A DNA stretch of 64,000 nt from contig JBAZYD010000007.1 of assembly GCA_041659465.1 (NCBI GenBank), forward strand, positions 5,670 to 69,669. Direction: 5' to 3'. The notes under the pieces were generated by a model that was given only the letters and a program-made list of their open reading frames with translations, made no database searches and was not told the origin of the DNA. Below, piece after piece: positions 6,438-43,369 of the stretch (position 1 is the stretch's first letter; every line of letters starts with the position of its first letter). This DNA comes from Candidatus Micrarchaeia archaeon (GTDB taxonomy: Archaea; Micrarchaeota; Micrarchaeia; Anstonellales; Anstonellaceae). A program made the position numbers and the translations under genes.

Positions 6438-6890
6438 TCATTTTCCAAACGAAGGGAAATAGTAGAAGAAGGGGAGCACTGCGATGATGATGGCGCCCAG
6501 GAGCGCGGGCATGAAAAGCCTGAATTCGCCATTCCCGAAATAGAACCCGCCAGCAACGACCAGCACGAAAAACAGCGCCGCCGCAAGCAGGTAATCACGC
6601 ACTTTTTTTTCGAACCTTGCGCGCCTTGCGCTTGCCTCCCCCAAATGCTCGCTGCATGCGACCGTATGCCTTGCAGGCTGGCGGAAAAGCGCGCGAAGCT
6701 TCCTTGCGGCGATGATTGGGAATTCCGGCTTGGCAGGGGCGCCTGCGCGGGCCGAGCCGCAGATTATGCATATCCCTTTTTCCAGAGAGCGCGCGCCTTG
6801 CCCCTGCGGGCGTGCGCCAATTCCCTGCGCCCGCGCGCCTTTTGCCTGCTTATCCGCGCGCTTTCTCCCCTTGGCATGGTTCGTTGCCAT
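6438..6890 (-). CDS. Small basic protein with a CxxC...CxxH motif and two C-terminal TM helices, hypothetical
   Basis: The ORF extends to 6947, but the ATG at 6890 (MATNHAKGRKR) sits about 25 nt downstream of a TATA-like box at 6913-6919. Contains ICIICGS...VACSEHL and a hydrophobic C-terminus. Confidence 0.5.
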   Translation of the reverse strand: MATNHAKGRKRADKQAKGARAQGIGARPQGQGARSLEKGICIICGSARAGAPAKPEFPIIAARKLRALFRQPARHTVACSEHLGEASARRARFEKKVRDYLLAAALFFVLVVAGGFYFGNGEFRLFMPALLGAIIIAVLPFFYYFPSFGK

Positions 6891-20471: not shown

Positions 20472-20563
20472 TGGGCCCACGAGGATGGAGCGCGAAGCGC
20501 GACAGATTTTGCGCGCAGCGCAAAACGTGGGCACACGAGCAGCAGCGAGTGGGCCCACGAGGA
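20472..20563. repeat. 14-nt exact direct repeat tgggcccacgagga (20472-20485 and 20550-20563)
   Basis: The second copy is the 3' acceptor strand plus T-stem of tRNA-Val. The first copy lies 64 nt beyond the tRNA 3' end. The spacer contains the perfect hairpin TTTTGCGC-TGC-GCGCAAAA. Confidence 0.8.
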
Positions 20564-20693
20564 ATCGAACCCCGAGTCTTCTGCACGTCAAGCAGACGTC
20601 TTACCATTGTCGAACCCATTTGCACTTTTCCGTTGACGCTTTTGCGAGCGTGCCCATCTGGAGCGAGCAAAAGGGTCATTCGACTATAGGCCC
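20550..20693 (-). tRNA. tRNA-Val (anticodon GAC) with an about 70-72-nt intron in the D-loop (about 20605-20677)
   Basis: Exon 1 is GGGCCTA-TA-GTCG-AAT(G). Exon 2 is (AT)GGTAAGAC-G-TCTGC-TTGACGT-GCAGA-AGACT-CGGGG-TTCGATT-CCTCG-TGGGCCC-A. BHB-like: TCGA/TCGA 4-bp helix flanked by 3-nt bulges ATG and CAA, then an ACCC/GGGT helix. Confidence 0.8.
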
Positions 20694-28547: not shown

Positions 28548-28658
28548 GGGCTTGTGGCGCAACGGTAGCGCGCCTGCATGGCATGCAGGAGGCTGGGGGT
28601 TCGAAAGCTTTCGTCGGCGAAAATTTGCCGGCTATCGCCGTCAATCCCCCCGAGTCCA
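28548..28658 (+). tRNA. tRNA-Ala (anticodon GGC) with an about 39-nt intron in the T-loop (about 28606-28644)
   Basis: GGGCTTG/CGAGTCC acceptor with G3:U70, GCGC-AACGGTA-GCGC, CCTGC-ATGGCAT-GCAGG, GGGGG-TTCGAA[intron]T-CCCCC, discriminator A. T-tract follows. Confidence 0.85.
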
Positions 28659-28733
28659 TTTTTTCTTTTCAACCTCTACTTCCGGGAAGGCGCGCAAAGG
28701 CAGGCTTTTAACCCTTAACTGGAAAATCGCCAC

Positions 28734-28934: not shown

Positions 28935-29242
28935 GGGCAGGCAGAAGGGGAAGCTTTTTAATCAGGCTCAACAGGAACGTTAGCGGGAGCGGCGGAAGGA
29001 CGGCCAACCAAGGCGCGAGACGCGCCGACGGAGGAAGCTCTGCCCACCGCAAGAGTCCTATCCCCTTAAGGGGGAATCGGGAACAGAAACGAAACTTTTC
29101 CGCGCGGATGAGGATGACGAAAGGAGACGCGCGAGAATTGGTGAAACGGCCCGTGTATGGATGCCATGCGCGGTGCAAGGCCTTTGTGCCGCTTAGTCCA
29201 ATGCCGTCTGAAACAGAAGGCAGGCTACTACCTGCCGCTCCC
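28933..29242 (+). ncRNA. rnpB: RNase P RNA (archaeal type A-like)
   Basis: P4 strands GGAGGAAGCUCUGCCC and AACAGAAGGCAGGCUA, GGUGAAACGGCCCGUG element, terminal P1 pairing GAGGGCAGG / CCUGCCGCUC. The overlapping ORFs are Arg/Gly-rich junk. Confidence 0.8.
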
Positions 29243-29308
29243 AACTAATTTCCCCCAGCCCGAAGGCTGCCCCCCGTTTTTAATCCTTCCTCATCAAATT
29301 AGCCTCGT

Positions 29309-29529
29309 GCCAAGGTAACTCAGAGGCTGCGATGTGCGCATCCAGCCGAGGAATTTGGTTAGAGTGCCAGACTCATAGAACCCAACTGCGCATTGCAGGC
29401 GGGAAACCGATGAGTGATGAGTGCGCGCCCGCGCACGATGATATACAAAGGCAATCTGAGGGAAAATGTTCCCTGAAACCAGCATCCGGAGAAATCTGGA
29501 AGTCGTGTGTTCAAATCCCACCCTTGGCA
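29309..29529 (+). tRNA. tRNA-Met or tRNA-Ile2 (anticodon CAT) with two introns: D-loop (about 29324-29353) and 37/38 (29378-29493, 116 nt)
   Basis: GCCAAGG/CCTTGGC acceptor, ACTC-AG[intron]TTTGGTTA-GAGT, CCAGA-CTCATA[intron]A-TCTGG, AAGTC, GTGTG-TTCAAAT-CCCAC (one U.C mismatch), discriminator A. Not initiator-like. Confidence 0.85.
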
Positions 29530-37463: not shown

Positions 37464-38294
37464 ATGAAAAAAATGCTATCGTTCGCGCTATTGCTCATGC
37501 TCGCGCTTCCGCTTGCCTTTGCAACAAGCTCTGCCTCGTTTTCCACAGGCTCGGCCAGCCTGCCGGAGAATATCGAGATGGCAGGGCATTTCGGCAACTA
37601 CACGCTTGTTGCATTCTCATCGGGCGGGAAAGTGACGGTGGCAATTTTCGGCGAAAACGAGAGCCAATCTTCCCTTGCCTCGGAAATAAATTGGCTGGTG
37701 CAGAACGGGAAATTCTACACTATTTGCGATATTGGCGCAATGCCTGCGCCTGCCAGGGAGCAGGAGGCATATTGCAACATGAATGGGATGTGGGCGGAGG
37801 AGAGCGCAATCGCGCCAACCCAAGCGCCTGCGCCCACAGGCAGCGCGGCCACGCAGGACAACGGGGCCGGAAGGACTGCAATGTCAGCAGCAGGCGCACC
37901 CCAGGAAAAGTCATTGCAGGCGCCAGCCGCGCAGACAGCGCCTTCGGGAATCGGCTTCGAGCAGACGCTTCAGCTCCTTGGCGCATTCCTTGCGGTCCTT
38001 GTGGCATCCTACCTGATATTGCAAAGCAGGCACGAGCCAGTGCTTGATGCCGCGACTGAAAAGCTGCTGGACAACCCCACGCGCGCAGGCATAATGGAGG
38101 AATTGTCCTCTGCGGACAAGATACCGACAGACATCTCCAACAAGCTTGGCAAGAGCAAGGCCGCCGTGGTGGAGCATTTGGCGGCATTGTCCGAGGCAGG
38201 GCTTGTGGAGCGCATTGCCACGCCTGGCAAGAAGTTCGTTTTCTACAAGCTCACGCAGAAAGGCAGGCAGGCTCTTTTGAGAAGGGCTGGCTAG
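37464..38294 (+). CDS. Membrane-tethered ArsR-like winged-helix protein
   Basis: Signal-like N-terminus, about 150-aa external part, TM (LLGAFLAVLVASYLIL), then LLDNPTRAGIMEELS...IPTDISNKLGKSKAAVVEHLAALSEAGLVERI...FYKLTQKG (wHTH). Confidence 0.7.
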   Translation: MKKMLSFALLLMLALPLAFATSSASFSTGSASLPENIEMAGHFGNYTLVAFSSGGKVTVAIFGENESQSSLASEINWLVQNGKFYTICDIGAMPAPAREQEAYCNMNGMWAEESAIAPTQAPAPTGSAATQDNGAGRTAMSAAGAPQEKSLQAPAAQTAPSGIGFEQTLQLLGAFLAVLVASYLILQSRHEPVLDAATEKLLDNPTRAGIMEELSSADKIPTDISNKLGKSKAAVVEHLAALSEAGLVERIATPGKKFVFYKLTQKGRQALLRRAG

Positions 38295-43212: not shown

Positions 43213-43369
43213 GCAGGGGTGGCGGAGCCCGGTTTAACGCGCCAGACTCAAGATCTCCGCGCTTCGGCGCGGCATGCGTTATCTGGTGACTTAGGTCTTC
43301 GGGAGTTCGAACGCCGTTGTTTGGCAACAACGTGTTGCCAGCCTTCGGCTGACAATCTCCCCCCCTGCA
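43213..43369 (+). tRNA. tRNA-Leu (anticodon CAA) with two introns: anticodon loop (28 nt, about 43253-43281) and T-loop (about 43 nt, about 43312-43354)
   Basis: GCAGGGG/CCCCTGC acceptor, 3-bp D stem GCG/CGC with a 13-nt loop, CCAGA-CTCAAGA[intron]-TCTGG, long variable arm TGACTTAGGTCTTC, GGGAG-TTCGAA[intron]T-CTCCC, discriminator A. Confidence 0.85.

Follow-up and report, generated by a model that had tools for sequence, protein, structure and literature searches.

Why would an archaeon keep, in the anticodon loop of a tRNA gene, an intron whose conservation extends far past splicing requirements? The question is raised by the tRNA(CAU) gene at positions 29309-29529 (+) of the DNA analysed here, a 64,000-nucleotide (nt) window of contig JBAZYD010000007.1 from a Candidatus Micrarchaeia archaeon (assembly GCA_041659465.1). 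The gene is 221 nt long and holds two introns, a short one in the D loop (intron 1) and a longer one at position 37/38 (intron 2), and it is intron 2 that shows the extended conservation. From its sequence we lean towards reading intron 2 as a cut-down, self-targeting box C/D guide for 2′-O-methylation of C34 (Cm34) in the very tRNA that carries it. The whole explanation into which this fits, a twice-interrupted elongator tRNA-Met gene with a guide in its second intron, seems to us on balance probable.

Sequence inspection shows an acceptor stem in which GCCAAGG (29309-15) pairs with CCTTGGC (29522-28); the discriminator A is at 29529. The D stem ACTC/GAGT encloses a ‘D loop’ of 40 nt in the unspliced gene, the anticodon arm CCAGA-CTCATA...A-TCTGG is interrupted by 116 nt, the T arm is GTGTG-TTCAAAT-CCCAC, and CCA is not encoded. 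ARAGORN made no tRNA call on the raw, unspliced locus with or without its intron mode, nor anywhere in the window, and Rfam (at the gathering threshold and at E up to 10) gave neither a tRNA match nor a small RNA (sRNA) family at the raw locus. After removal of 29324-29353 and 29378-29493, ARAGORN called a 75-nt tRNA-Met(cat) with stems of 7/4/5/5 base pairs (bp) and one T-stem mismatch. A preliminary description of this DNA had proposed the same introns, 30 nt in the D loop and 116 nt at 37/38, and the same 75-nt product, and its coordinates hold. The gene is thus made up of the following parts.

29309-29323 (+), exon 1, tRNA positions 1-15 (acceptor 5′ strand, U8 A9, D stem 5′ strand, A14 G15)
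29324-29353 (+), intron 1, 30 nt, position 15/16, with a relaxed bulge-helix-bulge (BHB) motif
29354-29377 (+), exon 2, positions 16-37 (D-loop remainder, D stem 3′ strand, anticodon stem 5′ strand, CUCAUA)
29378-29493 (+), intron 2, 116 nt, canonical position 37/38
29494-29529 (+), exon 3, positions 38-73 (A38, anticodon stem 3′ strand, variable loop, T arm, acceptor 3′ strand, discriminator A)

The extent of exon 1 is based on the ARAGORN cloverleaf of the spliced product, with its junction set by intron-less orthologs. The anticodon CAU lies in exon 2, with C34 at 29374, and exon 2 is invariant across the order. That the locus is a real tRNA gene with both introns is, in our judgement, close to certain. 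For annotation this means that the sole elongator tRNA-Met of these genomes escapes ARAGORN and Rfam until both introns are removed.

Two adjoining elements in intron 2 point to the proposed function.

29408-29416 (+), antisense (guide-like) element
29417-29443 (+), kink-turn of box C′/D′ type: AUGA (29417-20), hairpin P2 (29421-36), GAU bulge + GA + U (29437-43)

In the antisense element, UGAGU is the complement of A31-A35 in the anticodon loop; AUGAGU (29410-15) forms a helix with A31-U36 (29371-76), and a further pair joins C29408 to G29378, the first base of the intron. C34 is faced by G29412, which precedes the AUGA box by five nt (N+5). Because C34 pairs with the fifth nucleotide upstream of NUGA, which is the position 2′-O-methylated by L7Ae-Nop5-fibrillarin particles, we take C34 to be the likely target, and the fibrillarin, Nop5 and L7Ae genes are all present in the genome. 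The kink-turn signature is complete: C-G closes P2, the 3-nt bulge ends in U, and tandem G.A pairs are followed by U.U. The guide helix appears in both the minimum free energy and the centroid fold of the precursor, and fold z-scores are −2.5 for the anticodon arm with the intron and −3.6 for the whole gene.

We compared this arrangement among 20 orthologous loci from the order, 18 of them from the same genus, and among 45 introns from the class. The UGAGU:ACUCA pairing was invariant, with C34 at N+5, in all 20 order orthologs. A single unpaired base separated UGAGU from NUGA in 20 of 20 order orthologs and in 45 of 45 class introns despite many insertions and deletions elsewhere, although extraction of the 45 itself demanded the motif UGAGU, one base, NUGA. 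That limit applies equally to the invariance of the UGAGU core in the 45; over the introns compared, the full guide pairing ranged from 5 to 10 bp. The extension of the helix covaries with the intron bases i1 and i2. Of 40 distinct combinations at i1:n9, four were mismatches and the others were the pairs G:C (6), U:A (9), A:U (18) and G:U (3), and when guides were permuted among genomes, none of 2000 permutations attained the observed complementarity. The kink-turn motif NUGA-hairpin-NNUGAU was found in 42 of the 45 introns. Its P2 hairpin covaries and is formed by 38 distinct sequences with 3-7 closing pairs; among shuffled P2 sequences, 9.6% of trials gave at least 3 pairs.

The covariance model R1, built from alignment A3 to represent the guide and kink-turn core, had one match in the organism’s own genome (63 bits, against 14.7 for the runner-up). 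It matched in 47 of 151 class genomes, and all but one of the 26 matches inspected lay in 37/38 introns of tRNA-Met(CAU). This count is a lower bound, because five class genomes without an R1 match all contained a recognisable variant of the module when read by eye; the spacing was kept in four of the five, with a variant box or one altered guide base. A generic scan of the own genome for NUGA-hairpin-NNUGAU gave only chance-like matches.

The remainder of intron 2 contains its splicing elements and several genus-level structures. Helix H is formed by CUCA (29372-75) and GGAG (29488-91), with the bulges UAG (29376-78) and AAA (29492-94). In the 20 order orthologs, CUCA (32-35) likewise pairs over 3-4 bp with NGRG near the intron 3′ end, and the bulges UA^N and AA^A38 are kept. 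The motif is of the relaxed hBH type, since no h′ helix adjoins the 5′ bulge. The order of elements within the genus, from 5′ to 3′, is P1, a linker of 12-14 nt ending in UGAGU, one unpaired base, [A/U]UGA, P2 and NNU-GA-U, after which come the segment AUA.AAAGGCAAU, the hairpin P3, AAACC..., the H 3′ strand and AA. In addition to the module, the features are as follows.

29381-29403 (+), P1, a nested hairpin with CCC/GGG outer and CUGC/GCAG inner pairs
29443-29455 (+), conserved single-stranded segment AUACAAAGGCAAU, conserved within the genus
29456-29459 (+), CUGA, exactly 12 nt after the C′-like box, private to this genome
29459-29474 (+), P3, hairpin AGGGAA-AAUG-UUCCCU, which folds in all genus-level orthologs from differing sequences

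P1 also folds in every genus-level ortholog from differing sequences (CGC/GCG, GGG/CCC, UCGCC/GGCGA). In other families, many introns are minimal (45-60 nt) and hold hardly more than the antisense element, the kink-turn and the 3′ splicing strand, which marks P1, P3 and the additional conserved segment as additions made at genus level.

The guide helix and the splicing helix H are mutually exclusive, as both use CUCA. From the elements, their conservation and covariation, and the presence of the enzymes, we infer the following scheme of binding, methylation and order of events. The pre-tRNA would take the guide fold, and L7Ae would bind the kink-turn. Nop5 and fibrillarin would then make Cm34, either in cis or with one pre-tRNA or intron molecule acting on another, the latter option being raised by the fact that one kink-turn is half of a normal C/D RNA. 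The anticodon loop would next re-pair with the intron 3′ end (CUCA:GGAG) to form the splicing motif, and EndA and a ligase would excise the intron, the three exons being ligated to give the 75-nt tRNA. If this is true, the intron has a selected function and is the first natural single-kink-turn methylation guide, and the module offers a reason for the persistence of a tRNA-Met intron in otherwise minimal genomes. Confirmation would mean that one kink-turn suffices for guided methylation in vivo; to our knowledge, such guidance is known so far only from engineered half-mers, including those reportedly described by Ye et al. in PNAS in 2009. We regard it as evenly balanced whether the Micrarchaeia tRNA-Met intron in general, and probably that of other DPANN archaea too, is a natural half-size C/D guide acting as a modification-before-splicing switch.

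Several observations weigh against the guide proposal. Only one kink-turn is present, with no box C before the guide and no conserved box D after it. In this genome, the antisense element pairs without interruption over only 6 bp (n2-n7), with one isolated pair in addition, which is short for a guide, and for some class-level introns no convincing H splicing helix could be drawn. The genus-conserved segment AUACAAAGGCAAU remains unexplained by the guide model, and the CUGA at 29456-59 would give perfect spacing for a second guide but is private to this genome. A mismatch in the T stem, U52.C62, might moreover weaken this copy of tRNA-Met. We do not class the intron as a canonical C/D sRNA because it has a single motif (AUGA-P2-GAUGAU) where two are required, with box C RUGAUGA and box D CUGA at the ends; what it has in common with that class is an antisense element directly upstream of a D/D′-like box, with the target at the fifth position. 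Wrong spacing and absent conservation led us to reject both a box C lying 5′ of the guide and a terminal C/D stem in which the CUGA at 29473-76 would take part.

A single kink-turn without box C or a conserved box D is also what would be expected if the kink-turn and antisense element were structural, with L7Ae locking the anticodon loop in a helix and no methylation of C34 being directed. Such a structure might help the long intron to fold, set the time of splicing or act as a check on it, or shield the anticodon. L7Ae is known from the kink-turns of many non-guide RNAs, and the mutual exclusion of the guide helix and H is as a switch would have it. However, a purely structural role does not need the invariant one-nt spacing that places C34 at N+5 in every intron compared, and it leaves unexplained the U.U pair that is typical of C/D kink-turns. 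Cm34 of archaeal tRNA-Met is, besides, known as a C/D-guided modification made on an intron-containing precursor. We consider the structural explanation unlikely, though it deserves attention.

The conserved segment invites a different idea, namely that the intron is a complete two-guide C/D RNA in which the C′-like box, UACAAAGGCAAU (12 nt) and the CUGA at 29456-59 make up the second guide, and that the excised, possibly circular intron acts in trans on another target. The spacing between the C′-like box and CUGA is exactly that of a guide, the segment is conserved within the genus, and stable, circular forms can occur among archaeal tRNA introns and C/D sRNAs (PMC7994747; Randau 2012). Against this, relatives have CGCG, CGCA, CUGC or CGGA at the CUGA site, which is why we do not regard it as a conserved box D; no box C is available to pair with it, and the minimal introns of other families lack the segment. 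Complementarity of AUACAAAGGCAAU to the 16S and 23S rRNAs of a relative (G003) was no better than that of shuffled versions; the own assembly holds no rRNA genes. Complements of AUACAAAGGCAAU in the own genome were scattered matches, not mapped to genes, none of which was recognised as a non-coding RNA. Nor did the segment pair with the 5′ leader of its own gene any better than with other leaders, and no covariation between the two was seen. We find a second guide improbable.

The genome does contain canonical C/D sRNAs, one of which provides a comparison for the register of the proposed guide. This RNA, on contig C4 at ~70752-70822 (−), reads GUGAUGA, guide, CUGA, hairpin, UGAUGA, AGAUCUUGAGUU, CUGA; its two guides are 13 nt and 12 nt long, and the hairpin lies between D′ and C′. 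The anticodon loop of tRNA-Leu(CAA) is complementary to its D guide, which places C34 at N+5, the same register as in the tRNA-Met intron. Two partial repeats of the D guide and CUGA follow this sRNA (C4 ~70488-70822 (−)), and a second canonical C/D sRNA lies on contig C15 at ~6460-6524 (−). The tRNA-Leu(CAA) gene itself, at window positions 43213-43369 (+), has two introns, one of ~28 nt at 37/38 and another, ~41 nt long, in the T loop.

The closest known counterpart is in Nanoarchaeum equitans, where the 66-nt intron within elongator tRNA-Met is a stable, abundant RNA represented by 31,500 reads (Randau 2012, Genome Biol 13:R63, PMC3491384). The publication calls it a potential C/D sRNA and assigns it a box C and a box D, but gives ‘no prediction’ of what it targets (PMC3491384). 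Both introns occupy the 37/38 site of the same host gene, and both organisms belong to DPANN. The published sequence (...UAUGAGCU-CUGA-CCCGAAAGGG-GAUGAU-GC hairpin), compared by eye, has its elements in the same order as the present module, and by our reading C34 is again at N+5, so that self-targeting may apply to N. equitans too, an assignment that is ours. The present intron differs in being nearly twice as long, in having the extra P1 and the genus-conserved single-stranded segment, and in having AUGA in place of CUGA; expression has been shown for the N. equitans intron, whereas the present one is read from DNA sequence. We conclude that the module belongs to the published N. equitans-type C/D-like RNAs of tRNA-Met introns, and the C34 assignment would give a target to an RNA class whose published founder had none predicted.

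An intron that guides methylation of its own tRNA has a precedent in the euryarchaeal pre-tRNA-Trp intron (Haloferax volcanii; Pyrococcus sR50), which guides methylation of its own C34 (Clouet d’Orval 2001 and Singh 2004, as summarised in PMC4033218 and PMC7994747). According to these summaries, that intron resembles intron 2 in its 37/38 site, in its target (the wobble C34 of its own tRNA) and in having a guide fold as the alternative to a BHB fold. As described there, it differs in being a full C/D RNA (C, D′, C′, D) with two guides, for Cm34 and Um39, whereas here we see one kink-turn and one guide in tRNA-Met. The 37-nt tRNA-Trp intron of the present genome showed no such motif by eye.

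C/D ribonucleoproteins are responsible for Cm34 in the elongator tRNA-Met of archaea (PMC6601510; PMC7994747). In Haloferax a separate sRNA acts on the intron-containing tRNA-Met precursor (PMC6601510; PMC4033218), and in Pyrococcus the wobble bases of tRNA-Leu(CAA), Leu(UAA), Met and Trp have separate sRNAs, only the Trp guide being an intron (PMC7994747). The trans-acting tRNA-Met Cm34 guides (haloarchaeal sR-tMet, the Pyrococcus sRNA and human SNORD97/SCARNA97) have the same target nucleotide and the same enzyme family as proposed here; they are separate genes with two box motifs, whereas here the guide lies inside its substrate’s own intron. Going by the title of Joardar 2011, the Haloferax substrate is the intron-containing precursor, which fits the pairing with intron bases seen here. 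Bipartite guides are described in PMC9670817.

CAU is the anticodon of elongator and initiator tRNA-Met and, when C34 is converted to agmatidine to read AUA, of tRNA-Ile2. The assembly (1.36 megabases in 36 contigs, 84.5% complete) yielded just two genuine CAU tRNAs. The other one (C8:43440-43514) is the initiator, as indicated by its A1:U72 pair and its GGG/CCC anticodon stem, the three G:C pairs at 29-31/39-41. The present gene has neither mark but G1:C72 and CCAGA/UCUGG, in agreement with the earlier remark that its acceptor GCCAAGG is not initiator-like. The preliminary description had left elongator Met and Ile2 side by side and suggested a look for tiaS. We found the TiaS_FLD domain (PF08489) in none of 31 family genomes (the own genome and 30 others, 13 of them at least 90% complete), with four of four archaeal controls positive, and published ARMAN lineages lack tRNA-Ile(CAU) and TiaS and use tRNA-Ile(UAU) instead (Fujishima 2011, PMC3239211). 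The failure to find TiaS_FLD in these family genomes, the published ARMAN result and the assignment of the other CAU tRNA as initiator together make us confident that this is elongator tRNA-Met rather than Ile2, which settles the choice.

An Ile2 identity would be compatible with the CAT anticodon and with the failure to find a tRNA-Ile(UAU) gene. Neither that gene nor a third CAU tRNA was found, a loose scan giving noise, but at 84.5% completeness this says nothing about their true absence. Besides conflicting with the TiaS and ARMAN results, an Ile2 reading would leave the genome without any elongator tRNA-Met, and we consider it very improbable. Matches to the 3′ half of the gene in relatives, which had hinted at a second tRNA-Met paralog, proved to be tRNA-Arg(TCT) and tRNA-Thr.

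The T-stem mismatch noted in the preliminary description is present, T52 (29508) facing C62.

29518 (+), C62, opposite U52 in the T stem, from ortholog comparison

In every ortholog, position 62 is A or the pair is a compensated one (CACAC or CACGC), which makes U52.C62 an A-to-C change private to this genome. One could suppose that this tRNA-Met copy, with two introns and a mismatched T stem, is weakened or decaying, and the failure of ARAGORN and Rfam to call the raw gene would agree with that. It is, however, the sole elongator tRNA-Met gene found, and its spliced product differs from the spliced orthologs of two relatives (G020 and G010) at only two of 75 positions, U16 and C62. Neither BHB motif is disrupted, nor is the promoter box or the intron module, and a single T-stem mismatch is tolerated in many tRNAs. 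Decay of the gene thus appears scarcely credible to us.

Intron 1 has its own splicing motif. Helix H, ACUC/GAGG, joins 29318-21 to 29348-51 by 3 bp and an A.G pair (CTC/GAG being 29319-21 with 29348-50), and the bulges AGA (29322-24) and AAU (29352-54) are 3 nt each. Helix h′, GGCTG/CAGCC (29325-29 with 29343-47), is extended by GATG/CATC (29331-34 with 29339-42). The two helices and the AGA bulge named in the preliminary description are thus all present, and h′ covaries: in the alignment of intron 1 (A1), 91.4% of cells were paired compared with 31-55% in slid controls, and seven of ten h′ pairs had changed on both sides. The motif is of the relaxed HBh′ type, as there is no outer helix h. 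An insert of 30-34 nt occurs at this site in 10 of the 20 order loci and is absent from the other 10. Five aligned same-genus orthologs without it read ...CTC AG[C/T] TTGGTTA GAGT, and since they lack precisely the insert, they fix the junction at A14 G15 | U16. The BHB rule, with cuts after the second bulge nucleotide (AG^A, AA^U), predicts the same junction. No further copy of intron 1 was found in the own genome, and the idea that it is a repeated element of this genome was rejected on that ground.

A gene with two introns is by itself one more example in a lineage known for heavily interrupted tRNA genes. Further two-intron tRNA genes, for Ile-GAT, Gln-CTG, Val-GAC, Val-TAC and Leu-CAA, were found by hand in the same genome, which makes the layout ordinary for this Micrarchaeota lineage. 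In ARMAN-2, 56% of tRNA genes are interrupted, frequently at non-canonical positions, and the epsilon2 splicing endonuclease cleaves relaxed BHB motifs (Fujishima 2011, PMC3239211). Multi-intron tRNAs are described from ARMAN-2 (Ca. Micrarchaeum) and the Thermoproteales, with epsilon2 or (alpha-beta)2 EndA (PMC3239211), and of these ARMAN-2 shares both its lineage and its enzyme type with the present gene. The introns reported by Fujishima 2011 (PMC3239211) include those at 59/60, at 53/54 and at the canonical site in tRNA-Ile(UAU); box C/D and a tRNA-Met intron are unmentioned there. The present genome encodes an EndA frame of 424 amino acids with two tRNA_int_endo matches and a full-length match to the ARMAN-2 epsilon2 enzyme 4FZ2 (E 1.8e-125). 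This enzyme and the archaeal RNase P RNA fit the Micrarchaeota placement. Epsilon2-type endonuclease frames of 425 amino acids occur on two separate contigs (C8:67971-68492 and C36:451-972), which may reflect a duplication, a strain variant or contamination.

The number of introns in tRNA-Met varies from one to several, and the D-loop intron is present in half of the order loci, implying fast intron turnover inside one genus. A third tRNA-Met intron, in the T loop, was seen in 8 of the 20 relatives (L007, L008, L010, L013-L015, L017, L019), and a further one near 30/31 in two class-level genomes (L047, L055).

The gene appears to have a promoter of its own.

29277-29284 (+), TATA-like putative promoter box TTTTTAAT, 25 nt upstream of tRNA position 1

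A CTTTTAAT(C) box occurs at a similar upstream distance in orthologs, and also before the RNase P RNA and a small open reading frame (ORF). We read the locus as a single-copy elongator tRNA-Met(CAU) gene with a predicted TATA-like promoter. Matches to the gene were present in 36 of 41 related genomes, and contigs from the probable source sample confirm the sequence of the locus outside position 29518; among public sequencing runs, none of RNA was listed as containing it. One contig of that sample joins 29377 to 29491 with ambiguous letters between them, and probably comes from a related organism with another intron.

The archaeal RNase P RNA gene lies 70 nt upstream of the tRNA-Met gene. The box CTTTTAA(T/C)C is found at window positions 28706-28716, 28954-28966 and 29276-29286, before a 66-codon ORF, the RNase P RNA and tRNA-Met, respectively, and with the same box ahead of each, these three neighbours may each have their own promoter. 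Words like TTGCCTTTGTAT (at most 2 mismatches) occur at 13 sites in the window compared with 4.9 expected, for example at 37513, 38362, 58156 and 58712; in relatives, a similar stretch, AATGCCTTT, lies just downstream of TTTTAAT promoter boxes.

Other tRNA genes in the window also have inserts. That of tRNA-Ala(GGC), at 28548-28660 (+), has a T-loop insert of ~37 nt and scores 28.4 bits with Rfam, below threshold. The tRNA-Val(GAC) gene at 20550-20693 (−) has a D-loop intron of ~60 nt of the type CCCTTTTGC...GCAAAAGCG...GGAAAAGTGCAAA. Look-alikes of this intron occur in tRNA-Leu(TAA) (C5:51457-51666), in another tRNA (C5:30593-30740), in the T-loop introns of relatives and inside the tRNA-Met intron of one relative (G015, locus L012), so that these inserts look like a mobile family of introns or hairpins.

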